This document shows, in pieces, positions 8,420-42,813 of a stretch of 58,354 bases of DNA. The number at the start of each line of letters is the position of its first letter. Position 1 is the first letter of the stretch. The notes beneath the pieces are model-generated. The model did no database searches and had not been told where the DNA came from. It saw nothing but the letters and a program-made list of their open reading frames with translations. The stretch is from an uncultured Erysipelotrichaceae bacterium (GTDB taxonomy: Bacteria; Bacillota_I; Bacilli_A; RF39; UBA660). The position numbers and the translations under genes are program-made. Location: assembly GCA_902779035.1 (NCBI GenBank), contig CACZAH010000005.1:1-58354 (forward strand). The letters are read 5' to 3'.

Positions 8420-9294
8420 CTACTCAGTAGGAAGTACTGATTTATCTAGGATGATGACAGGACGAACAACAGGATTTATTAAAGCAACACTCGCATTTTT
8501 AAATTCACCATATTCCTCTACTACTATAATACCAGAATCCCCTGACAATGAGTTGGTCCAGTACGTATAATTTCTATTATAAATCCATTCATATTTTGGC
8601 AATTGTCTTATTTCTATTTCACAACTACCGCATGGTTTAACTTCTTTACTTTCAATTTCTATTTCATCTTGTAATATCAATCTTGCTTCACTTGCCGCTG
8701 GGGCTTGTGCTGTTTTCCAAGCATCAACTGTTGTTTTTACATATGAAGTAGAATAAACACTACTTTCTGAATGATATTGCATTCCTCCATAGCCATTTCT
8801 GTCATATGTTTGTGCTCCTGTACCATTTGAGTATGTTTGTACTTCTTCATATGATAATGGTTCTGCTTTTAACATTGTTACTGTTGATTCTGTTGCATCT
8901 GAATCTTTAATTACATAATAATTTATATTATTGTATGTAACTTGATCTCCTACGTATAGTTTTCTACATTTCTTCCTGTAACTGTACAACCTGCAAGATA
9001 TACACTTGAATCAGTGTTGATTTGTGTTGTTGAACACTCTACTTTATTTCCTGAGTATTCAATTGTTAGTTGTGATACTTCTGTTGGAAATTTACCTGTA
9101 TCAAGTAAATAACCTGCAATTGCTAGTTCAATACTTCTTCCATATGCATCAATACTTCGCCTGTCTGCAGAAATACGTGCTTTTCTAATTATATTCATAA
9201 CAAGTGGAGTAACTATTAATGCAATTATTGCCATAATTACTAATACTCCTATTAACTCGATTAATGTAAATGCATTTCTTTTACTATTTGCCAT
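8420..9294 (-). pseudogene. Frameshifted prepilin-type (class III signal) protein with C-terminal DUF6273/C-type-lectin-like domain
   Basis: ORFs 8950-9303 (KRNA|FTLIELI) and 8420-8989 align end to end with intact paralog 41607-42500; about 13 codons are missing at ~8950, causing a frameshift. Confidence 0.8.
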
Positions 9295-9376
9295 ATTTAT
9301 CATTCCTTTCCATTCAATCTTTTTAAAATTTTCTTTAAAGCATTACACACGCTAGTCACTAATGTGCTCTAATTAT

Positions 9377-9485
9377 ATCATGGACTTGTTTTTAGTGTAT
9401 ACCATGATTACACTTTTTATACATTTATTATTCCTATCTCGCCTCACCTTACCTTCTAATACTAGAGTCAACCCCTATTTTGAAA
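9377..9485 (-). promoter_or_regulatory. Conserved pilin-gene leader and collapsed promoter (TTGACT -35 kept, spacer and -10 missing)
   Basis: Colinear similarity to 42524-42652; the 21 nt T15AGTAAA present there is absent here. Confidence 0.65.
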
Positions 9486-9639
9486 AAATTTATTTTTCAT
9501 TACAAACAATTCTTATTTTACCTCCTTTTCATATTTATATTATGATGAAAAAAGCATTCCGTTTTTATGATTAACACGATAAAATTTAATTAAAGAAAGA
9601 AAGAAAGAGATTATTCTAACATTATTAGAAAGGAGGTTA

Positions 9640-9807
9640 ATGATATGGCTAATGAAAGTTGCAAAAGAAATGGGATATGATTTTACTTTAGAAGAATATA
9701 AAGATGCAAATGGTGTATATTTTAAGAAACTAGGAGTCTGGAAAACAATAAAAACACTCTGGCATTTTAGTAAAGTAGTTAAATCTGCAGAAAAAGAAAA
9801 TAAATAA
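9640..9807 (+). pseudogene. Small ORF or remnant with Nif11-like leader motif (VAKEMGYDFTLEEY)
   Basis: 55-aa ORF not in the track, downstream of AGGAGG (9631-9636); the best-spaced ATG (9645) is out of frame, suggesting an internal deletion. Confidence 0.4.
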
Positions 9808-9877
9808 ATGCTAAATGCTTACTAAAGTAAAATGGCTGAAAACAACGGCCATTTTACTTTTTATATTATCTAATGAA

Positions 9878-9940
9878 TACTCCCCGGGTCAAGACCTCGA
9901 TTGTCCTGATGGACAATCGACTCTCTTCGAGAGCGGGGTA
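9878..9940. repeat. GC-rich multi-branched palindrome (REP-like or structured RNA)
   Basis: Closing stem ccccg/cgggg enclosing arms ggtc/gacc, tcgattgtcc/ggacaatcga and ctctc/gagag. Confidence 0.6.
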
Positions 9941-9998
9941 TCTATAATCTGCAGTTTAACAACTGCTCACTTATTAAAATGTTGCAAACTGGATATTT

Positions 9999-11315
9999 TT
10001 ATCTAGAAATCCCCCAGAATCCTGATTTATTTGAACCTACTCTATAAATATAATCTTCCTTTTTTAATTTTCTGATTATTTTTTCTACATAACTTTCACT
10101 AATATTAACTTCATCTACTAGCTCTGATATAGTAATTCTTGAATTGTTTTTCATTTTATCTAATACTTTTTTCTCATTATCATTTAATTCAGTATAATCA
10201 TTATTGCTATTATTATTCTCTAATAATTCTTTATTAATAGGAATAGTTACTATTATTGTATTATCACTGATGTAAAATGCATCTTTCCCATACTTACTTA
10301 TGATAAGTGGAATCCCATGCCCAGTTTGATCTATTAAATCTAAATTAGTAAATATATTTAAAAGCGCAGAGTTTACTGGTTTACTTACCCCTTTAAAGAA
10401 ATCATCTTTATTAAGTGCTTTAGGTAATCCACCATTAGATACAATCTCAATTCTATCATCATAGATATAAACTGCTGGAGGTATCTTTTCAGTCCATCTA
10501 GTATGTACACATGCATTTAACCATGCTTCTTTAAAGCATGCATAATCAAAATAACTTTCCTCAACTCTTTTTATACCACCTAATTTTACTTTTGTTTCAT
10601 TAATTACATTCATATATTCTAAAACATCATTGACAGCAGTAATCAAGCATTTATTTCCATATTCTGTTCTTTTAACCATAACTGATTTATCAACTCCAGC
10701 AAATGTGACAACCTTAATAGATATATCATTAATATCGGATAATAGTTCTGCCATATAGTTATATCTACCATCACTAGTTAATAATTTCATATTATGTTCA
10801 AATTCTTTTTCATTTATATTATAACCATTTATAACATACAAATTCTTCAATGTTTTAAAAGTTAAATCAGTTCTAATAGTAGCCTCATCAACAATTAAAT
10901 CAGGTTCTCCTTTAGAATTAATTAATTGATATAACATTTCTGGCGAAACCTTTTTATCTTCATCAAAAGATCTAATATAGTATTTATCAAATGCAGAATA
11001 TATATTAGCATTACCTTTAGCGCTTACCTTAATAATTGTTTTATCATTAACTAATTCCATACTTATAACCGGAATAACTTGTGGTTTAATCCCTTCTGAT
11101 ATTTTTCTTGAAATATCTCTTAAAGTACTTTCAGTAACATCTTTCTGACCGATAATTGTACCATCGTTTTTAACACCAAAATAAAGTGTTGCTTCTCCAT
11201 GCTTATTAAGCATAGAAGACAGTGATATTACACCAGCCGTTAATTCACTTGTACTTTTTTTAAATTCAACTACTTCGCTTTCCATTCCTAAACTATTATT
11301 GTTTGATTCTTTCAT
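9999..11315 (-). CDS. AlbA_2 (Schlafen-like) + HATPase_c_4 + winged HTH protein (often annotated RecG-like or transcriptional regulator)
   Basis: ESEVVEFKKS, LYFGVKNDG, EAWLNACVH, DDRIEIVSNGGL, C-terminal HTH and RVGSNKSGFW. Confidence 0.85.
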   Translation of the reverse strand: MKESNNNSLGMESEVVEFKKSTSELTAGVISLSSMLNKHGEATLYFGVKNDGTIIGQKDVTESTLRDISRKISEGIKPQVIPVISMELVNDKTIIKVSAKGNANIYSAFDKYYIRSFDEDKKVSPEMLYQLINSKGEPDLIVDEATIRTDLTFKTLKNLYVINGYNINEKEFEHNMKLLTSDGRYNYMAELLSDINDISIKVVTFAGVDKSVMVKRTEYGNKCLITAVNDVLEYMNVINETKVKLGGIKRVEESYFDYACFKEAWLNACVHTRWTEKIPPAVYIYDDRIEIVSNGGLPKALNKDDFFKGVSKPVNSALLNIFTNLDLIDQTGHGIPLIISKYGKDAFYISDNTIIVTIPINKELLENNNSNNDYTELNDNEKKVLDKMKNNSRITISELVDEVNISESYVEKIIRKLKKEDYIYRVGSNKSGFWGISR

Positions 11316-11366
11316 ATTATCCCTCTTTCAAAAAATATTATATCATTAATTATCCTAAAACGCAAT

Positions 11367-11402
11367 TTATCCCTTACTTTATTCCTTACTTTATTCCTTA
11401 CT
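11367..11402. repeat. Three tandem 12-bp direct repeats (TTATTCCTTACT) upstream of AlbA_2 gene
   Basis: ttatcccttact ttattccttact ttattccttact. Confidence 0.8.
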
Positions 11403-11435
11403 ATCAAAAAAGTAGAATCCTATATTCTACTTTAA

Positions 11436-11864
11436 TTACTTCATTTGACTATCATTTAGTATTGATGTTTTGCATTTCATTTCAAGTTGTTTTACATTAT
11501 CATAATAACATGTACTAATACCTTTTTCATCAACACATTCTGTTGCTTTTTCACAAAGTTTTGCCTCTTCAGTTACTTTAGGATCATTTAACATTTTAAA
11601 TACTACATTAAGTAATAGTGATATTAATATAGTAACAATACTTAAAATAAGAAATAAGATTGCTATACCTTTACCTTTATAATTCATTCTTTTTAATGTT
11701 GCTAATCCTATTATTGCGAATATAAATGAAACTAATGATAAACAAAGACTTAAAGTTGTAAATAACTTAATATCTTTCATTATAAATGATAATACTATAA
11801 CTGCAACTAAAGCAATTATTGAAATAAGTACAAACGGACTGAACTTTTTATTCATACACTTCAC
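11436..11864 (-). CDS. Hypothetical membrane protein (3 TM, Cys-containing C-terminus)
   Basis: Hydrophobic segments, KGKGIAI motif; RBS GGAGG. Confidence 0.6.
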   Translation of the reverse strand: MKCMNKKFSPFVLISIIALVAVIVLSFIMKDIKLFTTLSLCLSLVSFIFAIIGLATLKRMNYKGKGIAILFLILSIVTILISLLLNVVFKMLNDPKVTEEAKLCEKATECVDEKGISTCYYDNVKQLEMKCKTSILNDSQMK

Positions 11865-11889
11865 CTCCTAACTAAACTATATAATAGAA

Positions 11890-12627
11890 TTACTTAATTT
11901 CTTTTTTACTACTAATTATACTGCCTAATATATAAGATACAATAATATATACTATACATATAATAATTACTGTTATCCCTTTATTATTAGTAGCATTTAC
12001 TATCCAAAATTTAGATATTCCAATATTAGTTTTAAATTTTAATAATGTATCTATTGTAAACAATAGTGTTGGAGCTAAAAAGTTTGTTAAAATACATGCA
12101 ACAAGTGCTCCACTTGGTTTAGATACAATTGATGATATTAATGTATATAATGATGCAATGCCTAGTAAATTGATATAACTAATACCTATTTTACCAAGTA
12201 CATTACTATTTAGCATTACAATTTTACCACCTGCTATAAATGTAACAATATAAGCAAATATAAATGAAGCAATAAACATAATTGTTACACCAAACATAAT
12301 AGTAAAAAATTTAGATGCAAATACTTGTTTTCTAGAAAAACCTCTAGCTATTATATTTTTCATAGTACCATTAGATACATCTAATGTGTAGAATAAAGCA
12401 ATAAATATTGCAACAAATAAATCAAATGAACCTGGATTTAAGAAATCTATAAGTGTATCATTAGAATTAATATTAAGTGTCTTATGTGTTATAAAGTTAG
12501 CAGTTACTACATTTGCAATTATTCCAAGTGATGCAAATGCGATAAGAACAATTGTACAGATATAAAATGATTTTTGTTTAAATAAATTATGAATATTAAA
12601 CTTATTTAATCTATTCATTAGTATCAC
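11890..12627 (-). CDS. ABC-2 type transporter permease
   Basis: Multi-TM, NGTMKNIIARGFSRKQVFASK; coupled to the ATPase. Confidence 0.85.
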   Translation of the reverse strand: MILMNRLNKFNIHNLFKQKSFYICTIVLIAFASLGIIANVVTANFITHKTLNINSNDTLIDFLNPGSFDLFVAIFIALFYTLDVSNGTMKNIIARGFSRKQVFASKFFTIMFGVTIMFIASFIFAYIVTFIAGGKIVMLNSNVLGKIGISYINLLGIASLYTLISSIVSKPSGALVACILTNFLAPTLLFTIDTLLKFKTNIGISKFWIVNATNNKGITVIIICIVYIIVSYILGSIISSKKEIK

Positions 12628-13513
12628 CTATCTTTCTAATAAAGTACTCTTCTAAACTATCCACCTCAGTATATATTTCACTAACTAGTATTCCTTTTTT
12701 TACTAAGTATTTATTGATTAAAGCACTACTTTCTAAGTTAGAATATAATACTAATTTATCCTTAATACTATCTATTTTCTTTATATCAAACTCACTCTTA
12801 ATTAATTCTTTTGCTTTTTCATTATCATCAGTTTTAATAATTAATTTATTCTTACAATTATTAATTAATTCTTTAGCAGATACTTCTTCAAGCAATACTC
12901 CATTATTAATAATTCCATACTTAGTAACTACTTTAGCAAGCTCATCAAGTAAATGACTTGATATTAAAAATGTAATACCTAATTCTTTATTAAGTTTTAA
13001 AATAACATCTCTAATCTCTTTAATACCTGCTGGATCTAATCCATTAATTGGTTCATCAAGTACCAAGAAATCAGGATCTCCTAAAAGTGCGATTGCAATA
13101 CCAAGTCTTTGTCGCATTCCAAGTGAGAAATCTCTTGCTTTCTTCTTACCAGTTTTATCAAGATTAACAAATTTTAATATATCATTAATCTTAGACTCAT
13201 CTGCTCCATATAATATTGAAAATCTCTTTAAATTTTCATATGCTGTTGCATTCTTATAAAGTCCTGGTGCTTCTATTAAAGAACCTATTTTATTACCAAC
13301 TTCTTCAATTCTTTTACCACCAAATAGTTCTACTTCTCCTGAACTAATACTAGTTAAAGATAAAACTGTACGCATAAATGTAGTTTTACCTGCACCATTC
13401 TTACCAATAAATCCGTATATATCTCCCTTATTAATAGTCATTGAAACACCATCAACAACTTTTCTTCTTCCATATAATTTAGTAAGTTTATTTGTTTTTA
13501 AAACTGTCTCCAT
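12611..13513 (-). CDS. ABC transporter ATP-binding protein (BcrA/lantibiotic-immunity-like)
   Basis: Walker A GKNGAGKT, FSLGMRQRL, LVLDEPINGLD, SSH. Confidence 0.92.
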   Translation of the reverse strand: METVLKTNKLTKLYGRRKVVDGVSMTINKGDIYGFIGKNGAGKTTFMRTVLSLTSISSGEVELFGGKRIEEVGNKIGSLIEAPGLYKNATAYENLKRFSILYGADESKINDILKFVNLDKTGKKKARDFSLGMRQRLGIAIALLGDPDFLVLDEPINGLDPAGIKEIRDVILKLNKELGITFLISSHLLDELAKVVTKYGIINNGVLLEEVSAKELINNCKNKLIIKTDDNEKAKELIKSEFDIKKIDSIKDKLVLYSNLESSALINKYLVKKGILVSEIYTEVDSLEEYFIRKIGDTNE

Positions 13514-13522
13514 AATACCTCC

Positions 13523-13837
13523 TTACTTTAATTTAACAGCAGTACCATATACTATAATTTCTGATGCCCCTTGCATTACACCAGATGAACCATATCTAAC
13601 ACCAACTATAGCATCCGCACCTAAACTGTTAGCTTCCTCTATCATACGCGATGTTGCAACACTTCTTGCCTCAGCAATCATCTTAGTATAGCTTTTTACC
13701 TCTCCACCTACGATATTTTTCATACCAGCAAGAAAATCTTTACCAATATTTTTTGATTGAACCATTTCTCCTTTAACAATACCTAATGCCTCAATAATCT
13801 CTTTTCCTGCAACATTTTCTGTTGTAACTATTAACAT
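13523..13837 (-). CDS. YbjQ/UPF0145 family protein
   Basis: LIVTTENVAGKEI..LGIVKG, GGEVKSY, GADAIVGVRY, YGTAVK. Confidence 0.9.
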   Translation of the reverse strand: MLIVTTENVAGKEIIEALGIVKGEMVQSKNIGKDFLAGMKNIVGGEVKSYTKMIAEARSVATSRMIEEANSLGADAIVGVRYGSSGVMQGASEIIVYGTAVKLK

Positions 13838-13930
13838 AAAACTCACCTCTCGCAATTATTATATAAAATTATTTAAAAAATTACTAGACCTTTTTTAAAA
13901 ATAAAAGCTGGGAATAAATCTCAGCTATAC

Positions 13931-15946
13931 TTAATTTGAATCTTTATTATTACGCATATCTATTGTTGCTTCATTAACTGCATCATCAAATGTTTTAATT
14001 GCATCAACAATCATCGAATATCCACTTGCTGCACCAAATCCATGGTCTAGATTCTTAAATAGTTTTTGTAATTTTCTTAAATATGCTATAACAGTTTTCT
14101 CTGGATATCCAACTAAATAGATTAAGAATTCATTACCATCTGTTCTAATTATTTCAGTATTAGGTAATTGTGAAGTAATTAATATATTAGCAGCTTGTAA
14201 TATTATCTTATCTCCTTCTTCTCTACCATAATTATCATTTATATATGCAATATTATTTAAATCTACTACAATAATTGATTGTGGATATACTTCAGACTCA
14301 TCCCACTCTTCTACTTTACTATTTAAATATGCTCTATTCTTAAGTGATGTTAATTGATCAATATATTTTAACTTTTCTTCTTTAGTTAAAGTAGTCTTTT
14401 TAGAATTACGTATCTTTTTAATTATTAATCTAATCTTATTAATTATTGCAAGTATTAATAATACAAATATAATAATTATAATCATTAACATCAAATAGAA
14501 ATAATCAACTGTGTTATAAGATATACTATTATATCCATCTTCTACTACACTATTTATATTAATATAATTTATATAGAAATCAAATAGTGTTGCGAATGTT
14601 GAGTTAATATTAGAATTATTAATAATAAAGTTATAATCTATATCACTAACTATAGAGTCTACTTTATAATTTTTAAAATTACGAGTCTTATAATATTCAA
14701 AATCTTCTAGATTAATAACTACTACTTCATTTGATTTCATAGAAGTAATTAATTTATGCATAGACGAGTATGTATTATACTTTACACCATTTGCTTTAAG
14801 TATTCCAGCAATCTTACTGTTATTTACAGTAACTACCTTATAATTCTTTAAATCACTAACACTTTTTACATTAACATGACTATTATACGGAGACAATACT
14901 ACCATTTTACTATTAATAGCAGACTTAGTAATAAATGAATCTTTCTTAATATTTATATCATTATTATTAAGCATAATATCTACTTTACCATTTTCATAAT
15001 CAGTAACAAGCGCTTCTATAGTATCATACTCTTTATACTTAATCTCTACACCTGCAAAATTACTAAATGATTTTAATATTAAGTTATTAATACCAGTAAG
15101 CTTACCTTTTACAAGTTTATCGTAAATACCATCTTCTACAAATCCATAAACATAAGTTTTAGATTTAATATCAGTTTGTTTTAAAGTTGGTACACTCTTA
15201 AAATCATAATAATTAGTAAGTAAATGGTTACTATATGATTTATTAAAGTTGCTTTTTGACCATTTACTATAGTACTTAGTTAATACACTATTAAGGTTAG
15301 CATCTCCCTTTAAAGTGATTACATAATCTTTAGTTTCTGACAAAAATTCATATGATATAGCAAGCCCTTTACTAGATGCATACTTTGTAATATCACTCTT
15401 AAGTAGTATTAAAGCATCTATATTACTTGCACTATTAATCATTTCCGATGCACTCTTATATGTTGTAAATGTATTAGTATCATTAAAGTAATTAGTAAAT
15501 TTATTTATATCAGACTCTAATATACCTATATTACTATTAGAAACAACACTAGTACTATTTATTACTTTAGCACTATTAAATACCATTACATAATTGTCAC
15601 GATATACTAGGATATCATTAGCATCACTCTTATCTTTAATAGTAAATGAATAACTATTCAAATCAGTATCCCCAACTCTAAAAGCTGAAGGATTAAAACT
15701 TAAATTAGTACTCTTAGATACATAGTTTAGAAAATCAAATATAACACCATTACCGTTATAAGTAAAAGCTGGAACATCATTTAATACAGATATATCTATT
15801 ACATTAGTTTTATTATTATCTATCCATTGTTTTTCTGCAATTGTTAATGTATCTTTTTTATTATTTAATACATAAAACAAAAAAAACAAAGATAATATTA
15901 CTAATATAGTTGATATTAATATTATTATTTTATTTTTCTTTTTCAT
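13931..15946 (-). CDS. Membrane protein with two extracellular solute-binding-like domains and a degenerate GGDEF domain
   Basis: DQLTSLKNR, DLNNIAYINDNYG..GD, signature RTDGNEF in place of GGDEF. Confidence 0.8.
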   Translation of the reverse strand: MKKKNKIIILISTILVILSLFFLFYVLNNKKDTLTIAEKQWIDNNKTNVIDISVLNDVPAFTYNGNGVIFDFLNYVSKSTNLSFNPSAFRVGDTDLNSYSFTIKDKSDANDILVYRDNYVMVFNSAKVINSTSVVSNSNIGILESDINKFTNYFNDTNTFTTYKSASEMINSASNIDALILLKSDITKYASSKGLAISYEFLSETKDYVITLKGDANLNSVLTKYYSKWSKSNFNKSYSNHLLTNYYDFKSVPTLKQTDIKSKTYVYGFVEDGIYDKLVKGKLTGINNLILKSFSNFAGVEIKYKEYDTIEALVTDYENGKVDIMLNNNDINIKKDSFITKSAINSKMVVLSPYNSHVNVKSVSDLKNYKVVTVNNSKIAGILKANGVKYNTYSSMHKLITSMKSNEVVVINLEDFEYYKTRNFKNYKVDSIVSDIDYNFIINNSNINSTFATLFDFYINYININSVVEDGYNSISYNTVDYFYLMLMIIIIIFVLLILAIINKIRLIIKKIRNSKKTTLTKEEKLKYIDQLTSLKNRAYLNSKVEEWDESEVYPQSIIVVDLNNIAYINDNYGREEGDKIILQAANILITSQLPNTEIIRTDGNEFLIYLVGYPEKTVIAYLRKLQKLFKNLDHGFGAASGYSMIVDAIKTFDDAVNEATIDMRNNKDSN

Positions 15947-15957
15947 AAATCACCTTA

Positions 15958-16392: not shown

Positions 16393-16404
16393 AATACACA
16401 CTTC

Positions 16405-16812
16405 CTATTTTGCTTGTTTACTCTCTAGTTTATTTAATACTTCCTTAGTTACATCAATTGCCTTAGAGCGAATAGACTCTGCAGTTTTTTCCATAACTGG
16501 AGTACCTTTTTCTTTTACATACTCAACTAAATCCTCTGCTTTATCACGAATCTTCTTACCTTGTTTTTTCGCAATCTCAATAGCAGTTTCTTTATCAAGA
16601 TTTTTAATTCCATCTTTAATCTCGTTAATTTTAGCAATCACTGCTTCTTTTACTTCTTCCTTATCTAGTTCTTTAGCCTTTTTAACTAAATCATCCATCT
16701 TATCTTTTAACATCTTTCTAGTTTCTTTCCCACTACGTGGTGCGAATAAAATACCTAACCCTGCTCCTATAGCAGCTCCTAATACAAATTTTCCTAATCC
16801 TTTTTTACTCAT
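16405..16812 (-). CDS. YtxH domain protein
   Basis: FVLGAAIGAGLGILFAPRSGKETR. Confidence 0.9.
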   Translation of the reverse strand: MSKKGLGKFVLGAAIGAGLGILFAPRSGKETRKMLKDKMDDLVKKAKELDKEEVKEAVIAKINEIKDGIKNLDKETAIEIAKKQGKKIRDKAEDLVEYVKEKGTPVMEKTAESIRSKAIDVTKEVLNKLESKQAK

Positions 16813-17092
16813 CTAAATCATTTCCTTTCCTTTTGTTAATAAACTTATTAATTAAATTTGTAATCAAAAGTATTACTTTATCACTTATTTGATCAACAAA
16901 TGAACCAGTTTTCTCAAATACATTAAATACACCATCAGTCTTAGTTAGTTTATCATCAATAACTTCTAGTGTTTTATCTACTTTAGATATTGTCTTGATT
17001 AATTTTATGCCTATTATAATAAATATTATTACAAGTACTAGTAACGCCAGTATTAAATCTATTATTAGAAATTCTTTAAAATCAAGCGTCAT
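16805..17092 (-). CDS. Small membrane protein, DUF948/YtxG-like
   Basis: TM followed by coiled coil, directly upstream of ytxH-like gene. Confidence 0.55.
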   Translation of the reverse strand: MTLDFKEFLIIDLILALLVLVIIFIIIGIKLIKTISKVDKTLEVIDDKLTKTDGVFNVFEKTGSFVDQISDKVILLITNLINKFINKRKGNDLDE

Positions 17093-18065
17093 AAGCATCA
17101 TCTCCATCATACATAGTATCAATTAAATTAAATAAATCATCATCATCATCAAAACTACTTGTATCTTTATTTTTAGTATCTTTACTATCTTTATTAAGTA
17201 AACTATCTAACTCTTTACCAATATCCATTGTAATATTTTCTAAATCTCTTAAATCAGTGTCAGATTTAGTTGGTGTTGCTTCTTCTTCTAAATCATCAAA
17301 GAAATCAGTATCAACTCTCTTACTCTTAGTTTTATTCTCATCTTTAAAAAGAATTGAATTACTACCAAATAATGTATTTTCTAACTCATCTTCTAGTGTA
17401 CCATAAGCCTTTTCCCTTATTGAATCAACACTAAGTCCATCAACTGATTTATAGTTTTTATCATTTTTACTAACAATATCTTCTTTATGATAATTCTTAT
17501 CTAAAATACCATATACAGGAGATATTATTGGAGTAGGCTTAAACTTTAAAGGTTTAGCCTCAATCTTAGTATTACCTTGATAAGGCTCTTTAACTCCACC
17601 ATTTTCTTCATTATACTTCTCTAAATACTCAGTCGCACTTTTAAGTGGATCATAATCTTTCTTCTTCGTTTCAGTTTTAACATCTACATTATTATAACCA
17701 TACTTTGTATCTCTTGTATTTTTTTCTTCTACTTCACGATATTTCTCTTGCAAATCAAATTTATCATTATTATTACTTCTAGTCTCTTTAACATCTCTTT
17801 TAGGTTCAGCTTTCTTAAAGTAATTATCTAAATCATTGAAATCATCATCAGTAAAGAATACTGGTTTTTTCTCTTCCTTCTTCTCTGGTATTTTAAAATC
17901 ATCAAAATCATCATACGACCTAGTCTCACGAGTAGGTCTTTCCCAAGTAACTTTCTCTTGCTTTTTATCAGGAATAATCTGTTCAATTTTCACTTCATCC
18001 TTTGGTTTTTCATCTTCTACTACTTCTTCTGTAAACATATTTTTTACTTTGTCTAAAAACTTCAT
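17082..18065 (-). CDS. Hypothetical acidic, low-complexity protein
   Basis: Long ORF with RBS; conserved-looking FKPTPIISPVYG motif. Confidence 0.6.
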   Translation of the reverse strand: MKFLDKVKNMFTEEVVEDEKPKDEVKIEQIIPDKKQEKVTWERPTRETRSYDDFDDFKIPEKKEEKKPVFFTDDDFNDLDNYFKKAEPKRDVKETRSNNNDKFDLQEKYREVEEKNTRDTKYGYNNVDVKTETKKKDYDPLKSATEYLEKYNEENGGVKEPYQGNTKIEAKPLKFKPTPIISPVYGILDKNYHKEDIVSKNDKNYKSVDGLSVDSIREKAYGTLEDELENTLFGSNSILFKDENKTKSKRVDTDFFDDLEEEATPTKSDTDLRDLENITMDIGKELDSLLNKDSKDTKNKDTSSFDDDDDLFNLIDTMYDGDDAYDA

Positions 18066-18067
18066 AA

Positions 18068-18670: not shown

Positions 18671-18764
18671 AAATTCAATACTCCCTTTCCTACATTATAT
18701 CAGAATTATTCACAATTCAAACATCTTTTTACATATTTACATTAATTTAGTGTAAAGGATATGT

Positions 18765-19406: not shown

Positions 19407-19515
19407 ACTATCAAATCCTCAACAATTGATATTATAGCAAATATCTAAATACGTTTCAACTTAAATTTTAAACATTTCTAGTTATTCGCATATATTATTA
19501 TGAACGGAGGAGTTT

Positions 19516-20885: not shown

Positions 20886-21860
20886 CTAATTTTCCTTACT
20901 TAAACTTAGTATTTTATTCTTAATAATACTATTTTCATATCTTTCAGTTAATTTTGCATCAGATAAATAATCTTGTTTAATACCTTCATTAACTGTATTT
21001 AAAAGCACCATTCTATGTTCAACTACATTAGCTTCTTTTATATTCAAAGCAAACAAGTAATTATATTTCGGATCTTTACTTTCAATAACCGCCTGTCCAT
21101 GGCGCATTACATCAGCACCATAAATATAAAGCGCATACAAGTAATTATAATTTGGATCTTTGCTTTTAATAACAACTTCACCATGTCTTTTTATATCAGC
21201 GCCAGGAACCTGAAAAGCAAATTCATAATTGTAAATTGGACTCTTGCTTTCAATTATTTTATTTGCGAATCGTATTTTATCACACGTTTCAATATAACAA
21301 GCACATTTTACAATATATTCTAAATCATCACTATTATATATAACATCAAGTAAAGGTTCTATATCTGTACCTTTTATATTTTTAGCAAATAAATAACAAC
21401 ACTCTGCTTTATTACTATCTAAAACAATCTTTTTATGTGCTTCTATATCTGCATCTTTAAAATTCAGTACATAATTTATTGATAAATCCGGATCTTTTTT
21501 ATTTAATATAACACGTTCTAATTCAGATTTTAATTGTTTATAAACATCACGATATCTAGTGGCAATTAAATAACAGATATCTGCATCATTACAACCAATA
21601 ATTGCCTTAGTTAATCCGATTTTAGTGTCAACATCAACAAAACACATCGTGTCAAACATTACACGAGTATTTCCGCTTTTTATAATAATACTAATATATT
21701 CTTCTTTATTATATACTTCTAGTTTTTCAATAAAATAGTATGCTAAGTGTGGATTACCTGATGCAATTACTGAATTTTTAAAAGTATCAATTACATATTT
21801 TTCCCCTTTTTTATCTCTTATTTTTTCTAAATCATCAATTATTTCCTTTACCTTATTCAT
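20886..21860 (-). CDS. Hypothetical helical repeat protein (~28-aa repeats)
   Basis: Repeats such as IESKDPKYNYLFALNIKEANV..H. Confidence 0.6.
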   Translation of the reverse strand: MNKVKEIIDDLEKIRDKKGEKYVIDTFKNSVIASGNPHLAYYFIEKLEVYNKEEYISIIIKSGNTRVMFDTMCFVDVDTKIGLTKAIIGCNDADICYLIATRYRDVYKQLKSELERVILNKKDPDLSINYVLNFKDADIEAHKKIVLDSNKAECCYLFAKNIKGTDIEPLLDVIYNSDDLEYIVKCACYIETCDKIRFANKIIESKSPIYNYEFAFQVPGADIKRHGEVVIKSKDPNYNYLYALYIYGADVMRHGQAVIESKDPKYNYLFALNIKEANVVEHRMVLLNTVNEGIKQDYLSDAKLTERYENSIIKNKILSLSKEN

Positions 21861-21880
21861 TTCCAAAACTCCCTTCAAAT

Positions 21881-24125: not shown

Positions 24126-25559
24126 TTACTTTTTTAAGTCACTTGCATTAATTTTTCCATCACCATTTACATCAGCAAGTAATTTTTGTGTTGTATCAAG
24201 TTCAATAATCTTAGCAATATATTTACTTAACATATTAGCATCAATCATGTTAACTTTATCATCCATATTTATATCTCCTACTTTGAACTTAGATGCAATA
24301 GCTTTAGCCAAACTATTAGCATCTTTATTATCAACAGCAGAATCTCCATTATAATCAGCATAATTTAACTGATCAATTGTAAGTTCTGTTTTCTTTAAAA
24401 TATAGTTTTCAATAATAGTAACATCTTCATGAGTAACTTTTCCATCTAAATTAACATCACCCTTCTGATACTTAGTATTACTGCCTACTTTATTTCTAAG
24501 AACAGCTACATCATTAATATCTATAACTCCATCTAAATTAACATCACATAAATTTAATTGTACTTTATTAGCAACAGTCACACCATTAAACATGTTTTGT
24601 AAGAGTGTTATATCATCATTATTAATTTTACCATCTAAGTTAATATCTCCAACTTGGTAATAATCAGATATAGTTTTAGCAAGTAAATCAACGTCAGTTA
24701 AATCAATAACTCCATCTTCATTCATATCAGAATACTTAAGTTGCTCTTTAGTTAATTTAATTTGATTAGCTACATATTTTTTTAGTAAAATTACATCATT
24801 TACATCAATTACATTATCATTATTAATATCTCCTAATGTATTGACTTTCATAATCTCACTATTTAGATACTCTTCTAATTCATATAAATCATTATTATCT
24901 ACTATACCATTATTATTATAATCTGCAACATTAATCTGTACTGTATTTAAAGAGGCCTGTTTCTTAAGATATTTACTAAGTAATTCTAAATCAGTTGTAT
25001 TAACTACACCATCTAAATTAATATCTCCTCTTTTATAATTAGCATATTTCGCATCAACAACAGTCTCCTTAACACATACATTGTTCTTATCAGTATATTC
25101 TTTAGGACATACAATAGATACTCCTATCTTAGATAAATACTCACTACCACTATTATGACCAGTTACATAAAGTCGAATATTTTCAGCATCTCCTACACTA
25201 AGTATTCCATCACTATTTACATCAGCTGCCATTAACTGAATTTCCGATAAATCTACAGTTTTAGCTAAATATTTATTAAGTAAGTCTAAATCATTGTTGT
25301 CTACTACCCCATCTAAATTAACATCTCCTAATATGTTAGCAGTAGTTGTCTCACTTTTTATACATTTATTATCACTTAATGTATAGCTATTATCATCACA
25401 ATAATAAAAACTAGTTGTAATAGAATTTCCCATTAAACTTTTCATACCTGTATTTCTTGCAATTAACTCATATATCATAAATGCAATTAATAATACTATA
25501 AACGACACGACTATTATTAGTGTAACCTTATTATTCTTTTTAAACGTCAATATAATCAC
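24126..25559 (-). CDS. Membrane-anchored protein with six tandem type I dockerin domains
   Basis: 12 GDxNxDG.V...D-type Ca-binding loops in six pairs; N-terminal TM. Confidence 0.85.
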   Translation of the reverse strand: MIILTFKKNNKVTLIIVVSFIVLLIAFMIYELIARNTGMKSLMGNSITTSFYYCDDNSYTLSDNKCIKSETTTANILGDVNLDGVVDNNDLDLLNKYLAKTVDLSEIQLMAADVNSDGILSVGDAENIRLYVTGHNSGSEYLSKIGVSIVCPKEYTDKNNVCVKETVVDAKYANYKRGDINLDGVVNTTDLELLSKYLKKQASLNTVQINVADYNNNGIVDNNDLYELEEYLNSEIMKVNTLGDINNDNVIDVNDVILLKKYVANQIKLTKEQLKYSDMNEDGVIDLTDVDLLAKTISDYYQVGDINLDGKINNDDITLLQNMFNGVTVANKVQLNLCDVNLDGVIDINDVAVLRNKVGSNTKYQKGDVNLDGKVTHEDVTIIENYILKKTELTIDQLNYADYNGDSAVDNKDANSLAKAIASKFKVGDINMDDKVNMIDANMLSKYIAKIIELDTTQKLLADVNGDGKINASDLKK

Positions 25560-33160: not shown

Positions 33161-33216
33161 CACATAAGTAATTGTATCATATAAAGTAAAAAAACTCTAT
33201 TATTTATAAATTTTTT

Positions 33217-34758: not shown

Positions 34759-34785
34759 AACTCCTCCTAACTTTTCCATTTCTAT

Positions 34786-36903: not shown

Positions 36904-36984
36904 ATTCACCATCCTCATCTACTCTACTTACATTTTACCATAATATTAAAAAAATATATACAATCTTGTATAAACTTTTTTAAA

Positions 36985-39900
36985 TTAATTAACTAATGTA
37001 TAATTCATATCTACAATCTTTTTATCTAATATTGAATAAAGGTAAGTATAAACTTTCTTACCAGTAATACGCTCTATATAATTCTTATATCCTTCTAACT
37101 GTTTAATATAAGCAGTATCACTTGTATTCTTTAACTTATAATCAATTATATTAATATAGTTATCATACTCAAGCATTAAGTCAATAAAACCATGATATTC
37201 TATATTACCTAATACATATTTAAACTCATACTCTTTATATATCTTACAATTTAAATTATGCATTATATCACTATCTAAGAAGGCCTTAATAAACTCGATA
37301 TAATTCTTATCAATAATATTATAGTTAGGATTTTTAAAATCAATCATCTCAAGTATATAGTGTATCTTAGTTCCTAAATCAATATTCTTCTGTTCTTTCT
37401 TACTAATAACCTCTTTATTACTTTTAGAAAAATGTTTACTACCTAACTCATTATATGTAATATCTAACTCTTTATCTTTAATATAATCGTCAGTTTCAGT
37501 TATATATTTACTTATATCAGGATTAATTATATCTTTATAATTAGAATCAATATCAACATCTACATTCTTAATAGTACCCTCTATTACACTATATATAGAG
37601 TTAAGTATATCTAAAAAAGACATGTATTTAAGTTTAACAATATCATTAAATGGTTCTTCATTATACTTAAGACTAGTTACTATAATCATTTTCTCTCTAG
37701 CTCTAGTAAGTCCTACATAAAATAGTCTAATTTTTTCCGATATCTCTTCTTTTATATAATTATCACGAACTAACTCTTTAACAAATGTATCATTAATACT
37801 ATCAGTAAATATAGGTAGTATCATACCATACTTATCATAATAAAATAGTGTTTCTTTTAAATCTCTAATATTAAACTTTTTATGCATTCCTGTGTAGTAG
37901 CACACCGGAAACTCTAACCCTTTAGATTTATGAATATTCATAATCTTAACAGAATCACCACTATCAGTATTAAGAGAATACTTTATCTCAGTCTTATCTA
38001 TATTATTTAAATAATTTATAAACTCATTGTTACTATAACCTAAGTTATCTAAATTACGAGCTATATCTGATAAATAATAGATTCTAACTATAGTATCATT
38101 AATACTTCCTACTTTAATAGTTTTATTATATATATCAAATACTTCTACTACTCTATTTAATAATTCAATATTATTTATATTATCTAACTCATAACTAATA
38201 GCCTGACACTTTTTAAATATAGTACTTTCAAATATCTTATTATCTTTAATAGTATTAAATATCTCATTATCACTAATAGAAAATAAATAACTTCTAGCTA
38301 TACTTACATAATAATATCTAAACTCTCTATCGTATTTTTTATTCTTAATCTTATTTATTAGATTTAATATATTTTTAATAAGAATAATATCCGTACCATC
38401 AGATAGTACATTATCCATATACATAACAAGAGGTATATTTAAATACTCAAATATCTGTTTATACTTTAAAAACTCAGTATTCCTATCCATAATAATACAT
38501 ATATCACTATAAGTAATATCACGCATCTTAAAAGTCTTCTTATCCATTACTTGATATTTATTATCTATCTTATTCTTAATATCACGAGCAGTTATAAATA
38601 TTTCTGCTTCTTCTTTAGTATAAGACTTATCCTCACTCTCTTCATAATTAAGTATAGTTAAGTAATTACTAGGATCTATATTATAAGCAGTATTACCAAA
38701 TACCATTTGATGAGACTTAATATAATCTGCTCCACCTATATCTAAACTCATTACTTTATTAAATATATCATTAATCGCATCTAATACTTCTTTACGGGAT
38801 CTAAAATTCTTAAGTAAATCAATCTTATATCCTCCATTATTATCCTGATAGTTAATATACTTCTCTTTAAATATATTAGGATTAGCATTTCTAAAACGAT
38901 ATATAGATTGTTTAATATCCCCTACCATATATACATTATTATTGCTTATTAGATTAATAAAAGTTTCCTGTAAGTCACTAGTATCCTGATACTCATCTAC
39001 CATAATCTCGTTATAGTAGTTCTTTAACTCTTCTCTAATACTAGGATTATCACGAACTACTTTTATTGCCATCTTAGCTATATCTATAAATTCATAAGAA
39101 TTATTATCACTTTTAAATTTATTAATTCTACTATCTAACTTATTAATAATCTCAATTATAATACTTGCATAATCTCTAGTATCTAATAACTCATCTAAGT
39201 TATAACTACATAATCTTTTAATCTCTTTAATTAAATCACTAATATTATTCTTATACTTCTTAGTTAAATCATCAGCTTTAGAAAGCCTAGGTAATTTAAT
39301 ATCAATATTATTATTAATATCTTCTATAGTCTTAGACATAAGTAATGGATTTAAAACTTCAGTAATCTTATCATAATAAGTTCCATCACAGTAACTCATT
39401 AAATAATTTAAATTATACTTAATCTCTTTAATCTTATTTAATAGTAATTCTAAGTAATCATTTTTTAATATATTAATATTAGTATCATGATAATACTCAC
39501 TAATATAATTATCTAAATACTCTTTCTTATCAATCTTTAAATCTAAGCTATTACTAATCTTAATAATAGAATTGATTAAATCTTTATCATCCTTAAAACA
39601 ATAATCATTAACTAATTTAGTAAATAATTCATTAGGATTACTATAATACTCATTAAATATATCATTCATAATCTCTAACTTCTTAATATTAATAATAGAA
39701 GAATCAATAATACTTATATTCTTACTAATATTAAGTAAATAACTATACTTCTTAACTATATATAATGAATAAGAATCAAAAGTAGTAATAAAAGATGCAT
39801 CAATTAAATCAAGTTGTCTATCTAATTTATTAGATATTATCTTATCCCTAATTCTACCCTTCATCTCTTTAGCAGCCTCTTTAGTAAAAGTTAGAATAAG

Positions 39901-40050
39901 TAACTTATCTATATCAACACCATCATTTAATTTACGTATAACTCTTTCCGATAATACAGCAGTCTTACCTGATCCAGCTCCCGCACTAACTATAATAGAA
40001 GTCTTATCTTTATCAATAGCAAGTTGTTGGTCTAAAGTAAACTTAGGCAT
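36985..40050 (-). CDS. addA: UvrD-type helicase/nuclease AddA
   Basis: SAGAGSGKT, VDEYQD, VGDIKQSIYRFR, IHKSKGLEF, YVGLTRA, C-terminal IIDYK nuclease; ATG 40050 after AGGAGG. Confidence 0.88.
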   Translation of the reverse strand: MPKFTLDQQLAIDKDKTSIIVSAGAGSGKTAVLSERVIRKLNDGVDIDKLLILTFTKEAAKEMKGRIRDKIISNKLDRQLDLIDASFITTFDSYSLYIVKKYSYLLNISKNISIIDSSIINIKKLEIMNDIFNEYYSNPNELFTKLVNDYCFKDDKDLINSIIKISNSLDLKIDKKEYLDNYISEYYHDTNINILKNDYLELLLNKIKEIKYNLNYLMSYCDGTYYDKITEVLNPLLMSKTIEDINNNIDIKLPRLSKADDLTKKYKNNISDLIKEIKRLCSYNLDELLDTRDYASIIIEIINKLDSRINKFKSDNNSYEFIDIAKMAIKVVRDNPSIREELKNYYNEIMVDEYQDTSDLQETFINLISNNNVYMVGDIKQSIYRFRNANPNIFKEKYINYQDNNGGYKIDLLKNFRSRKEVLDAINDIFNKVMSLDIGGADYIKSHQMVFGNTAYNIDPSNYLTILNYEESEDKSYTKEEAEIFITARDIKNKIDNKYQVMDKKTFKMRDITYSDICIIMDRNTEFLKYKQIFEYLNIPLVMYMDNVLSDGTDIILIKNILNLINKIKNKKYDREFRYYYVSIARSYLFSISDNEIFNTIKDNKIFESTIFKKCQAISYELDNINNIELLNRVVEVFDIYNKTIKVGSINDTIVRIYYLSDIARNLDNLGYSNNEFINYLNNIDKTEIKYSLNTDSGDSVKIMNIHKSKGLEFPVCYYTGMHKKFNIRDLKETLFYYDKYGMILPIFTDSINDTFVKELVRDNYIKEEISEKIRLFYVGLTRAREKMIIVTSLKYNEEPFNDIVKLKYMSFLDILNSIYSVIEGTIKNVDVDIDSNYKDIINPDISKYITETDDYIKDKELDITYNELGSKHFSKSNKEVISKKEQKNIDLGTKIHYILEMIDFKNPNYNIIDKNYIEFIKAFLDSDIMHNLNCKIYKEYEFKYVLGNIEYHGFIDLMLEYDNYINIIDYKLKNTSDTAYIKQLEGYKNYIERITGKKVYTYLYSILDKKIVDMNYTLVN

Positions 40051-40092
40051 ATAACACCTCCTAAACAATGTAATGTAATATAATTATACAAT

Positions 40093-41574
40093 CTTATAAC
40101 CGGACAGTTTTTCATATAGAGCAAAATCGAGGATTTATACCCTCGACTCTTTTCATTGCTTATACGACATTTTTCTGCTAAAATATAAATAGAAAAAAAT
40201 AAAAGAAAGCAGGTTGTCGTATGAATAAAGTATATAATAGTCAAGATGAAATTGCAAGTAATATCGTGGAACTTTTAAAAAAATGTGGAATTTTAAGAAA
40301 AACTTGTGCTTAAGATTATACCTTATATTATTATCGGAATGATTTCAGCTAGTTCTTCTGTTGCTTCTGATATTGCTGCCAAGTTAAAAGGAAGTTTTTC
40401 TTTAGTTCAGCATGATTCCGTTATCAGAAGAATAAAAAGATTTTTTACTAATAAACTTTTTAACCCCTATGATTTTTACGATAAAATCATAAGATTTGTT
40501 ATTTCTAATTATACTATAAAGCATAGTGATAAACGTGTACACATAGTTTTTGACCATATGTTTTCTCACGATAATTACACTGTTTTTATGATTACATTAA
40601 GAGTGGTGAAACTTGTGCATTCCGTTATGGTTTAGATGCTATAAAGGGAAAGATGAGCCTAAAGCATTGGATAAGGGAATGTTAAAAAAAGGAATCTCAT
40701 ATGCGTCATCACTATTTCCAGCTGACTATGACTTAATATTTCTTGCTGATAGATGGTTTAATTCAACTTTACTTCTTGATCATATTGATTCCTTAGGAAG
40801 AACCTATGTTGTTAGACTAAAAGGAAATATAAGGTGTTATGTTTATGATAAAAAAGAGGGGCATAAAATTTGGACAACTACTGGTAATTTATACGCTTAT
40901 GAAAACAAATCAGCATTCTATAATGATATTGAAATTACTAACAAGCAATTTAAAACAAATATCACAGTAAGTAAAAAGAAAGGTGTTAAAGAACCATGGA
41001 TTGTTGCCACAAATTGAGATACTAAAAGAGCTATTAAAGATTATGGTTATCGCTTTGGTGGAATAGAAACAGTATTTAAAAATCAAAAATCTAATGGTTT
41101 TTATTTAGAATCAACGGTTAAAGCTGATATCAAATATTTTGAATCAATGTATACTTTTGTCTATTTTCTGTACTTTTTCTTACAATATATGGAGCAAATT
41201 ATACTAAAAACTCCAAATGTTATAAAAACGTCAAAGTTACTACCCACAAATATATCAATGGAACTAAAACACGAGTTATGTCTTTGTTTAGCATAGGACT
41301 AATGTTATTTAATAAAGCAATAAATTCCCTGAAATACATTCGGATACCTTTCGCACTAAAATTGTACGATACCTAAATACTCACTTATACAATTGATGAA
41401 TGTTTTAAAAATTCAAAATTTGAATTCTTTTTGGCATGTGCATTTTTAAGTGTTACATGCATAATTAATGAAACAAACCGTGAATATCGTCAACTACTGG
41501 ACGAATATATTCACGGTTTTTCCATCATTTATCCCCTAAATTACAACGGTTTTCTAAAACTGTCCGGTTATAAG
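40093..41574 (+). mobile_element. Degenerate IS4-like DDE insertion sequence (~1.48 kb)
   Basis: Perfect 19-bp terminal IRs cttataaccggacagtttt (40093-40111) / aaaactgtccggttataag (41556-41574); no flanking TSD seen. Confidence 0.85.
40221..41376 (+). pseudogene. Transposase pseudogene with multiple frameshifts and a stop
   Basis: Fragments with HIVFD, FLADRWF, EPWIVATN, YGYRFGGIETVFKNQKSNGF (DDE, YREK-like). Confidence 0.85.
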
Positions 41575-41606
41575 TTAATGAGACCTTAATGAGACCAGAG
41601 CCCTGT

Positions 41607-42500
41607 TCATGCCGAGATTTCAGATTTAGAAAGTATTATAACTGGACGAACTTTGCCACCTAAATTGACATCATTGTAGGTCAAACGCCCATCATATACC
41701 ATATACCAAACTCTATTTGATGATCCGTTATATGAACTCATTGTCCAATATTGCAAACCATTATATAACCAATTTGGAACATTCTCACCTTTTGAATAAC
41801 TTGTTTCTGAATTTTTTATATATCCCAAATTTATTAGATCTTCTACCGTTATTAAGCGAACTTCTTCAGTTTCTGGTGCATTAACTACTTTCCAAGCATC
41901 TAATGTAGTTTTAATGTATGAACCATCATATTCGTTACTATTTGAATGATACATCATATTTCCAACTCCACCTCCAATCACATCAGCTCCAGGTGAATAC
42001 TCTATAATTTCATCAGAACTCAATGGCTCTTTTTTTAACAACTTAACATTCAATTGTTTAGAATCACTATTCTCTATTACATAATAATCAACACCATTAT
42101 ATGTTACTTCATCTCCTACTGAATATGTATCATATGTTACAACTTGTAATTTTCCATACTCATAATCACCTGTACTTCTTCCAGCAACAGTACATCCAGT
42201 TAAGTATACAGAGGAATCACTGTTTAACTGTGTAGTTTCACATACTACTTCATTACCACTATATTCAATTGTAAGTTGATCTATTGATGTTGGAAACCTT
42301 CCTGTATCTAGTAAATATGAAGCTATTGCTAGTTCTATAGATCTACCATATGCATCTACACTACGTCTATCTGCAGATATTCTAGCTTTTCTTATTATGT
42401 TCATTACAAGTGGAGTAACTATTAAAGCGATAATTGCCATTATTACTAATACTGCTATTAACTCTATCAGAGTAAAAGCATTTCTTTTTCTTTTAAACAT
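41607..42500 (-). CDS. Prepilin-type N-terminal cleavage protein with C-terminal DUF6273/C-type-lectin-like domain
   Basis: KRNA|FTLIELIAVLVI; C-terminus YWTMS..VWY..VRPVIIL. Confidence 0.85.
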   Translation of the reverse strand: MFKRKRNAFTLIELIAVLVIMAIIALIVTPLVMNIIRKARISADRRSVDAYGRSIELAIASYLLDTGRFPTSIDQLTIEYSGNEVVCETTQLNSDSSVYLTGCTVAGRSTGDYEYGKLQVVTYDTYSVGDEVTYNGVDYYVIENSDSKQLNVKLLKKEPLSSDEIIEYSPGADVIGGGVGNMMYHSNSNEYDGSYIKTTLDAWKVVNAPETEEVRLITVEDLINLGYIKNSETSYSKGENVPNWLYNGLQYWTMSSYNGSSNRVWYMVYDGRLTYNDVNLGGKVRPVIILSKSEISA

Positions 42501-42609
42501 AAATTACCTTCTTTCTTATAATTTCATGGATTCTATTTTTAGTGTATACCATGATTACACTTTTATACACTCTACAATACTATCTTTCATCACCTTACCT
42601 TCTGATATT

Positions 42610-42638
42610 AGTTTACTAAAAAAAAAAAAAAAAGTCAA
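42610..42638 (-). promoter_or_regulatory. Sigma-A promoter with homopolymeric T16 tract forming the spacer
   Basis: Minus strand TTGACT-T15AG (17 bp)-TAAACT; A16 at 42618-42633 on +. Confidence 0.8.
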
Positions 42639-42813
42639 CCCTATTTTGAAAATTTGTTAACTTTTACAATTATCTTACCTAATTGTTATTGACACATGTA
42701 TTATACGTGTTAAAATATTTATTCGGATATGTTTGAATTTCAGATGTTTTCCTTTCGTAAAAACAATTTGGCTTATGAAACAGTGGGTTTTGGTTACGAA
42801 AGGATGTGGTAGT

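Follow-up and report, generated by a model that had tools for sequence, protein, structure and literature searches.

The window analysed here, the whole 58,354-nt stretch of contig CACZAH010000005.1 from an uncultured Erysipelotrichaceae bacterium, raises the question of what two dispersed minus-strand loci represent, which open with the same prepilin-like start, share their upstream DNA and end in different tips. A first-pass annotation, made from the letters alone, had read them as part of a repertoire of individually switched, antigenically variable type IV pilin-like adhesins, possibly remote targets of a diversity-generating retroelement (DGR) encoded elsewhere. Our answer is that the two loci, W1 (8420–9483) and W2 (41607–42660), probably belong to a lineage-specific, expanded family of modular type IV pilins with a lectin-like tip, in which tips are rewritten by DGRs and genes are switched through repeat tracts; we would put the probability of this reading at roughly 0.6. 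The proposal of the first-pass annotation finds broad support at the level of the family but only partial support in W1 and W2 themselves.

Both loci were found where they had been reported, and they are paralogous. Their coding parts are the following.

41607–42500, minus strand: W2 gene, an intact 297-aa open reading frame (ORF) specifying a modular prepilin (ORF call; N_methyl 30.1 bits)
W2 product, layout: class III signal MFKRKRNA/FTLIE (slash after position -1); pilin head, residues 1 to about 116; C-terminal DUF6273-like module, residues 117–297
8950–9303, minus strand: 5' part of W1, a 117-aa ORF with the prepilin signal and pilin head (N_methyl 29.0 bits)
8420–8989, minus strand: 3' part of W1, a 189-aa frame carrying the C-terminal module in a different reading frame (DNA alignment to W2)

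The N-terminal parts are highly similar, as had been claimed, with 92 of 113 residues identical (81%, E 5e-66), including the stretch RKARISADRRS.DAYGRSIELAIA.YLLDTG.FPT. The C-terminal parts agree at 72 of 174 residues (41%, E 3e-31). Here the YWT and VRPVIIL motifs (GTTCGTCC) are indeed kept by both, but the statement that nothing else is kept was too strong, as VGD.VTYN..YYVI, LK.EPLS and Y..SY.KTT.DAWK..AP also persist. The shared upstream DNA extends over about 115 nt (9483–9369 versus 42650–42515) and is broken by a 21-nt gap in W1. The 33 kb separating the loci consists of unrelated housekeeping DNA (a glycyl-tRNA-synthetase-like gene, LepA, a penicillin-binding protein and a UvrD-type helicase), and six-frame motif scans of the window revealed no third copy of the family.

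W1, which had been treated as a single ORF, is a broken gene. In the DNA alignment (a 40-column gap) it lacks 40 nt that are present in W2 directly past the pilin head, the junction lying near 8953–8957. Because this deletion shifts the frame and creates the stop which ends the 117-aa ORF, the gene is split into two overlapping frames. The 5' part is 82% identical to L018, a locus of a related metagenome-assembled genome (MAG; loci of the relatives carry L numbers here), while the C-terminal frame is 67% identical to the same locus, which is intact in that other genome. Over the last aligned residues 68 of 73 are identical, including the equivalent of the variable repeat (VR) of a DGR target. 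Since the tip is near-identical to that of L018 across genomes, this subtype is not diversified, and as far as the alignments tell W1 is a decayed member of a non-diversified, conserved-tip subtype.

The pilin-like nature of the two products is borne out by several lines of evidence. Both N_methyl scores exceed the cutoff of 21.2 bits, TIGR02532 scores 26.2 bits against a cutoff of 16.3, and the prepilin motif RNA/FTLIELI is present at both loci, with the Ala at position -1 (before FTLIE) that had been remarked upon. This residue is common in the family. Among the best 120 of the 1862 homologs of W2 (E<=0.001 in a set of 5.8 billion proteins) we counted 57 Ala and 62 Gly, and at 56 gene starts the counts were 18 Ala and 38 Gly. 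Partial matches to the GspG and ComGC models cover roughly the first 70 residues of W1 and W2, and a profile of 42 homologs matches the alpha-1 helices of the solved pilins MshA, GspG and PilE (PDB; E 2e-4 to 0.1). The full-length model of W2 displays the long alpha-1 helix and globular head of a type IV pilin, with the helix at residues 11–66 and strands thereafter, at a predicted local distance difference test score (pLDDT) below 50 for much of residues 35–119. Furthermore, in two of the related MAGs, genes for T2SSF (PilC) and Peptidase_A24 (prepilin peptidase) and a Wzy_C-type gene directly precede a 127-aa family pilin, which shares 62% identity with the W1 and W2 heads.

The Wzy_C (O-antigen-ligase-like) gene, located between the prepilin peptidase and the short pilin (L045 2339–3748, L011 16798–17997 and L040 15990–17468), recalls pilin O-glycosylases, and its position suggests glycosylation of the pilin.

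The best 120 of the 1862 W2 homologs are full-length, being 56–100% identical over 93–100% of the query, and precomputed annotation assigns N_methyl to 119 of them and, in addition, PF19789 (DUF6273) to 29. One homolog, P0004, scores 25.4 bits with PF19789, which is above the cutoff, and the close homologs above that cutoff also touch Lcl_C/DUF1566. The AlphaFold2 model of W2 residues 117–297 has a pLDDT of 91.9. Foldseek was run with this domain alone, the matches of the full-length model being dominated by the long helix, and its best PDB matches were 9qa6 (E 1.2e-3) and 8q4e_A (E 4.2e-3; TM-score 0.60, normalised on the target), both with a probability of 1.00. One of these two is the Thomasclavelia ramosa immunoglobulin A peptidase, the N-terminal domain of which is annotated DUF6273 (PMC12402451), and 8q4e_A is the C-terminal domain of Lcl, termed C-type-lectin-like (PMC11162425). 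Structure prediction thus points to a C-type-lectin-like tip, which had been put forward on the strength of motifs.

How large is the family? A contig scan returned 54 loci, one of which is an unrelated type II secretion system locus of Cellvibrionaceae. The other 53 are family loci, and are distributed over three related MAGs (17, 11 and 25 each) on many contigs, often at contig ends. The repertoire of paralogs that had been postulated is therefore seen as 11, 17 and 25 dispersed loci in the relatives, but the window itself has only two. The pilin head is common to all of the family loci and the C-terminal modules differ; most members end in VRPVI.L.KS, and a group of about 480–500 aa has another ending. 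Further prepilin proteins with more divergent heads and a C-terminal membrane-spanning tail are specified by L011 (228–1490) and L037.

Two MAGs (L010 10001–14603 and L031 6556–11166) have, downstream of a family pilin whose promoter contains a repeat tract, two conserved exporter genes (ABC_membrane plus ABC_tran), the products being 595–601 aa each. The "PilB-like" Walker A matches beside the family genes in these two loci turned out to be the exporter pairs and were discarded.

Evidence that DGRs act on this family comes from the relatives. In L010 the order is family gene (16564–17577), MutS_I-like gene, bAvd, RVT_1 and then the template repeat (TR), an 87-nt repeat of the 3' end of the family gene which lies just past the reverse transcriptase (RT). 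Searches with tblastn revealed that sets of RT, Avd and MutS-like genes also adjoin family genes in L025, L046 and L048, and that RT fragments occur in L007 and L044. Mismatches between TR and VR fall on TR adenines in 12 of 14 cases in L010 (p=5.6e-5), 16 of 17 in L025 (p=1.4e-7) and 10 of 18 in L046 (p=0.0015). Six family genes, located on other contigs and spread across all three MAGs, have VRs to which the L007 template can be aligned, with mismatches at 3–9 of the 54 non-A positions and at 12–18 of the 26 A positions, and the L048 template matches the VR of L019. No RT was found, by motif screen or tblastn, in the flanks searched around several of the template-matched family genes, which fits action in trans; on the basis of these alignments, some members of the family appear to be targeted in trans by a DGR located elsewhere. 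Approximately 100 nt past the TR are conserved among three of the DGRs (L007 371–480, L010 19856–19960, and L048 7725–7620 on the minus strand), and we infer that this region may be the structured part of the DGR RNA used for priming.

Each of these components has a precedent. The architecture with a MutS-like (MSL) gene, as in L010, was described in a survey of 2017 (PMC5758913). In phages DGRs are already known to target DUF6273, the VR forming the C-terminal end of the domain (PMC11792537, PMC10743442), and one survey mentions, as a rare case, a "G-type pilin" domain holding the VR (PMC11661182).

Whether W2 itself is a target is best judged from the segment that corresponds to the VR.

41643–41720, minus strand: W2 VR-equivalent, residues 261–286, SNRVWYMVYDGRLTYNDVNLGGKVRP, ending GTTCGTCCAG (hypervariable alignment columns)

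In the best 120 of the 1862 homologs entropy peaks at 13 positions within residues 263–282, between V-W and V-R-P, and these alternate with fixed scaffold positions. The 13 columns are rich in N, S, Y, D, G and R, and the share of K/E/Q/M/W is 4.3% as against 23.6% in 12 control variable columns, which is the spectrum expected from AAY template codons. The residues that W2 itself carries at the hypervariable positions could all (13/13) be reached from AAY codons. C-ending codons are enriched in its VR segment (4/24 versus 10/273, p=0.019).

The second component of the reading, switching, concerns the DNA upstream of the genes.

42610–42638, minus strand: W2 distal promoter-like site, TTGACT, 17-nt spacer, TAAACT (promoter scan, 9/12 matches)
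42501–42609, minus strand: W2 leader in common with W1, holding AGAAGGTAAGG, a vestigial AGATAG resembling a ribosome-binding site, and the inverted repeat AGTGTA..TACACT (alignments)
9369–9483, minus strand: W1 copy of the shared cassette, with TTGACT at 9466–9471 (alignments)

The spacer of the W2 site is made up of a T16 tract (42618–42633) followed by AG, and with its length of 17 nt the promoter is predicted to be ON-competent. The W1 cassette, through its 21-nt gap, is devoid of the T tract and the -10 hexamer; the promoter scan detected a proximal site, TATACA-18-TATAAT with a TG motif, at 9372–9401. In the relatives a simple repeat lies between a -35-like TTGnnn and a -10-like hexamer, two of the MAGs having (TA)n at this place and the third poly-T. 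Such tracts are present at 22 of 57 gene starts (W2 and 21 in the relatives), with spacers of 7–23 nt. The region upstream of W2 aligns with the poly-T cassettes of the relatives over TTGAC, the T tract, the -10 hexamer, TAATAT, AAGGTAA and AGATAG, and in these homologous cassettes the tract measures 6 to 19 T.

The position of the tracts is far from even. Of 14 poly-T tracts that measure 10 nt or more, 6 fall into the 160 nt preceding a family gene, a zone which makes up 0.5% of the strand space, and 13 of 54 strand-wise counts of (TA) tracts with at least 5 units fall into the same zone, each TA tract being counted on both strands. Where the flanks of two cassettes are at least 80% identical, tract length differs in 5 of 8 pairs (for example T8 versus T17), a variation known here between gene copies only. 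Individual switching, as proposed in the first-pass annotation, has accordingly gained a candidate mechanism in the length-variable poly-T or (TA)n between -35 and -10, but W1 has no tract.

Past the promoter the window goes its own way. The relatives use AGATAGGAG as ribosome-binding site, and in the window a further 75–135 nt of leader come after it. A 28-nt conserved core of this leader was not found in the 54 loci, with up to 6 mismatches allowed, outside the two copies in the window, and the leader downstream of AGATAG is therefore specific to the lineage of the window, whereas the promoter part is shared. The leader RNA folds with z = -3.1 in W2 and +0.5 in its W1 counterpart. A riboswitch or other known RNA found no support, as no Rfam family reached the gathering score and none was better than E 0.14 in the two regions. 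An invertible promoter was dropped: no conserved inverted repeats flank the promoters, the only pairs found being imperfect and AT-rich (73–86% complementary) and different between W1 and W2.

A considerable number of observations weigh against the reading given at the outset. Beginning with the protein, W2 does not reach the cutoff for PF19789 (15.9 versus 23.5 bits), and the C-terminal part of W1 gave no match to this model. In Foldseek no match of the W2 C-terminal domain attained E<=0.001 and classical C-type lectin domains were matched only at a probability of about 0.1, so that the lectin-like fold is supported through relatives with DUF6273 and DUF1566 and not directly; nor was any known DGR variable protein among the matches listed. 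As to filament assembly, a Pfam scan and tblastn found no pilC, pilD or other pilus machinery in the window, and a motif screen of about 800 kb of flanks found no PilB-type ATPase, though this screen is not a sensitive one, since it also missed two RTs later found by tblastn.

The DGR component is equally exposed where W2 is concerned. The first-pass annotation had already stated that neither RT nor template repeat lies in the window, and every search agreed: the Pfam scan (51 ORFs of at least 100 aa) revealed no RVT_1 or bAvd, the repeat search gave nothing but W1/W2 pairs for these loci and hence no TR for either, and the RT, Avd and MutS-like proteins of the relatives had no tblastn match in the window at E <= 1e-3. 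Three of the 13 hypervariable codons of W2 (AGA, GTA and TTA) end in A and are unreachable from an AAY template. The rise in GC over its VR (0.36–0.40) is weaker than in verified VRs (0.47–0.57), and P0001, the one near-identical database match, differs from W2 at a single position, residue 241, and has the identical VR. The idea of a remote DGR therefore holds at the level of the family, where cassettes lie beside family genes, TR/VR mismatches are adenine-specific and distant VRs match templates, but the W2 tip matches none of the three templates found, 22–26 of 54–59 non-A positions being different. The sequence that follows W2 shows scattered short matches to the conserved stretch past the TR in the DGRs of the relatives, and these were set aside as chance. 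That W2 is at present the target of a DGR lying outside the window is a tentative view, to which we would give somewhat less than even odds; it may instead be a former target which is now drifting.

The promoters are not free of difficulty either. The optimal spacer of 17 nt does not occur in any of the 14 (TA)n promoters (7, 9, 9, 9, 11, 13, 13, 13, 15, 15, 15, 15, 19 and 23 nt were recorded), a short terminator-like hairpin stands just before the tract in 6 of the 11 poly-T upstream regions that were folded (W2 was not among them), and the lengths of repeat tracts are error-prone in short-read MAGs.

Many of these points would be accommodated if W1 and W2 were ordinary diverged minor-pilin paralogs, their common upstream DNA the remains of an old duplication and the poly-T an incidental run or the tail of a terminator, with neither switching nor diversification. 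The 58 kb hold just two copies, one of them broken, and no DGR parts; the VR of W2 fits no template, contains codons that AAY templating cannot give and recurs unchanged in P0001; hairpins precede some of the poly-T tracts in the relatives; and runs of T are not rare in the genome of the window because its base composition is 26% GC. We nevertheless consider this explanation unlikely, although it survives better than the others. The cassette of W2 is homologous base for base to cassettes of the relatives with 6 to 19 T, long tracts are strongly concentrated upstream of family genes, and the residue spectrum in the hypervariable columns of the best 120 of the 1862 homologs is that of a DGR.

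One might also suppose that the diversity of the tips arises mainly because paralogs recombine or undergo gene conversion, whereby C-terminal modules are shuffled and the 5' cassette in front of them is homogenised, with DGRs confined to a few members. Recombination there may well be. The paralog pairs L014/L021 and L004/L038 are 96–100% identical over the promoter and first codons and then drop to 30–60%, and L004/L044 has a mosaic pattern of identity; since paralogs match across this part and then diverge sharply, the sequences point to recombination at the shared 5' end of family genes. In addition, several distinct types of C-terminal module stand behind the same head, and W1 and W2 differ throughout the module rather than in the VR alone. 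But adenine-specific TR/VR pairs and the hypervariable residue spectrum are not products of recombination, and the two processes are not mutually exclusive, so as the principal source of tip diversity this appears to us rather improbable. Variation of the Neisseria pilE/pilS type, with silent copies devoid of promoter and 5' coding end, does not fit, since in the copies examined the start that codes for the signal peptide and the upstream region are both present.

Class III-signal sugar-binding proteins of archaea supply an analogy for a further explanation, in which the products would not be filament subunits, the prepilin N-terminus serving as a peptidase-processed membrane anchor or export signal for the display of lectin modules; the poorly defined model of the pilin head (pLDDT <50 for residues 81–119), the lack of a PilB-type ATPase in the flanks by motif screen, the 11–25 bulky "pilins" per genome, unusual for filament subunits, and the membrane-spanning tails of L011 228–1490 and L037 would suit it. 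It is the least likely of the three, for the head resembles the short pilin encoded directly after pilC, pilD and the Wzy_C gene in the relatives, and modular pilins that assemble into filaments have been published (PMC8179133, PMC9934059).

According to the preferred reading, that of an expanded modular pilin family with DGR-rewritten tips and repeat-tract switching, the conserved head (about 115 aa) would be the part incorporated into a type IV filament and the C-terminal DUF6273-type module would bind a ligand. Variation would then arise at three levels. Many dispersed paralogs would carry different modules. DGRs, the cassettes of which adjoin some members and which would reach other members in trans, would use mutagenic retrohoming from the TR, specific to adenines, to rewrite the segment of the module surface that V-W and V-R-P enclose. 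Finally, in the many members with a repeat tract between -35 and -10, slipped-strand changes in tract length would turn each gene on or off independently of the others. The names "adhesin" and "antigenically variable" would be apt if the family works in this manner.

That low-GC gut or rumen Firmicutes run all three layers of variation on pilin-lectin fusions, with W2 as a live member, is possible, but we regard it as rather doubtful. Were it true, repeat-tract phase variation and DGR hypermutation would for the first time be seen to act on the same genes, and the DGR targets per genome would exceed seven, the largest number of non-adjacent targets in the 2017 survey (PMC5758913).

Several other features of the window deserve mention. 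The surroundings of W2 contain, on the minus strand, a hairpin which is likely a terminator:

41470–41530, minus strand: hairpin, about 80–135 nt past the W2 stop codon (fold -21 kcal/mol, z = -4.96)

Fragments of a DDE transposase occur at 40306–41017, just downstream of W2, and a full DDE_Tnp_1 transposase at 46539–47729, 4 kb upstream; with transposase sequences on both sides, W2 sits in a stretch rich in mobile elements. Between 42700 and 43440 there are two tandem modules about 400 nt apart, each having a 65-nt promoter-like repeat on the minus strand (42967–43031 and 43376–43440, 98% identical) and a small plus-strand ORF which ends in a very hydrophobic peptide (42733–42885 and 43118–43285). 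Their layout resembles that of type I toxin-antitoxin pairs, and a search of Rfam gave no match. A tandem array of units of about 855 nt (repeat families D1, D2 and D5; 79–93% identical) begins at 55551 and runs off the end of the window at 58354, and encodes BRO-N domain proteins (56458–57315 and 57482–58171).

Elsewhere, the 477-aa product of the ORF at 24126–25559 carries six dockerin type I repeats, and a catalytic domain is not obvious in it. A 671-aa GGDEF protein (13931–15946) includes a weak ComGF-like stretch (20.5 bits against a cutoff of 27), and its connection with pilins is probably spurious. ORF 20886–21878, which is without a Pfam match, contains two tandem units of 84 nt that are 70% identical (21003–21170).

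Repeat-tract promoters of the kind described above are known already by themselves: in Haemophilus influenzae hifA/hifB a (TA)n tract is situated between -35 and -10, and the vlp promoters of Mycoplasma hyorhinis contain poly-A. As in these systems, a simple repeat forms the promoter spacer in our family and its length differs among otherwise near-identical cassettes. Unlike them, the family has two types of repeat, its genes specify pilin-lectin fusions, some of which are also DGR targets, and switching would be deduced from the tracts. The modular pilins of Streptococcus sanguinis are pilus-locus pilins and do not occur as many dispersed copies, in which they differ from the present family. 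They are not known to have hypermutation or promoter repeats. What the two have in common is a pilin joined to a bulky ligand-binding module in a Gram-positive (monoderm) organism, the module being a von Willebrand factor A type in PilB and a lectin in PilC of S. sanguinis (PMC8179133, PMC9934059).

The closest parallels to the tips are found in phages. Like the Faecalibacterium prophage DGR targets and the tentaclins, members of the family have their VR at the C-terminal end of a domain resembling DUF6273, and with the DUF6273 phage DGR proteins the family shares interleaved hypervariable and fixed positions, adenine-specific mismatches and the presence of Avd and RT (PMC11792537, PMC10743442). 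The phage proteins are of the tail or receptor-binding kind, whereas the genes of our family are chromosomal and multi-copy and join the domain to a prepilin head, and the cassettes carry a MutS-like gene and have the TR after the RT. In the apparent use of one template for several dispersed genes, and in possessing MutS-like and Avd genes, they resemble the DGRs of the Treponema denticola type with remote targets and those of MSL "architecture D" (PMC5758913). The DGRs of that survey differ from the present case, with its 11–25 family loci and several cassettes per genome, and the word pilin does not occur in it. The tip adhesins of Bacteroides type V pili offer a similar case, a pilus protein diversified by a DGR in its adhesive part, but these pili are of type V, lack a prepilin signal and belong to another phylum (10.1101/2024.11.15.621889).

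Modular pilins (PMC8179133), DUF6273 DGR targets and MSL-type remote-target DGRs (PMC5758913) are thus each known singly. Full-text searches of the literature gave no account of type IV pilin-lectin fusions as an expanded family of DGR targets, nor of DGR targets with repeat-tract promoters. In the organisms considered here DGRs, modular pilins and repeat-tract switches appear to converge on one gene family, which makes up a visible part of small, low-GC genomes. For such genes the plain label "prepilin-type cleavage/methylation domain protein" is unsuitable in annotation. If the reading is confirmed, these genes, with their short length and short promoters, would offer a workable system for the study of expression switching combined with targeted hypermutation, prepilin-lectin fusions would be added as a major class of cellular DGR targets, and it would become clear how a few dozen genes can provide a gut or rumen commensal with binding specificities in very large number.

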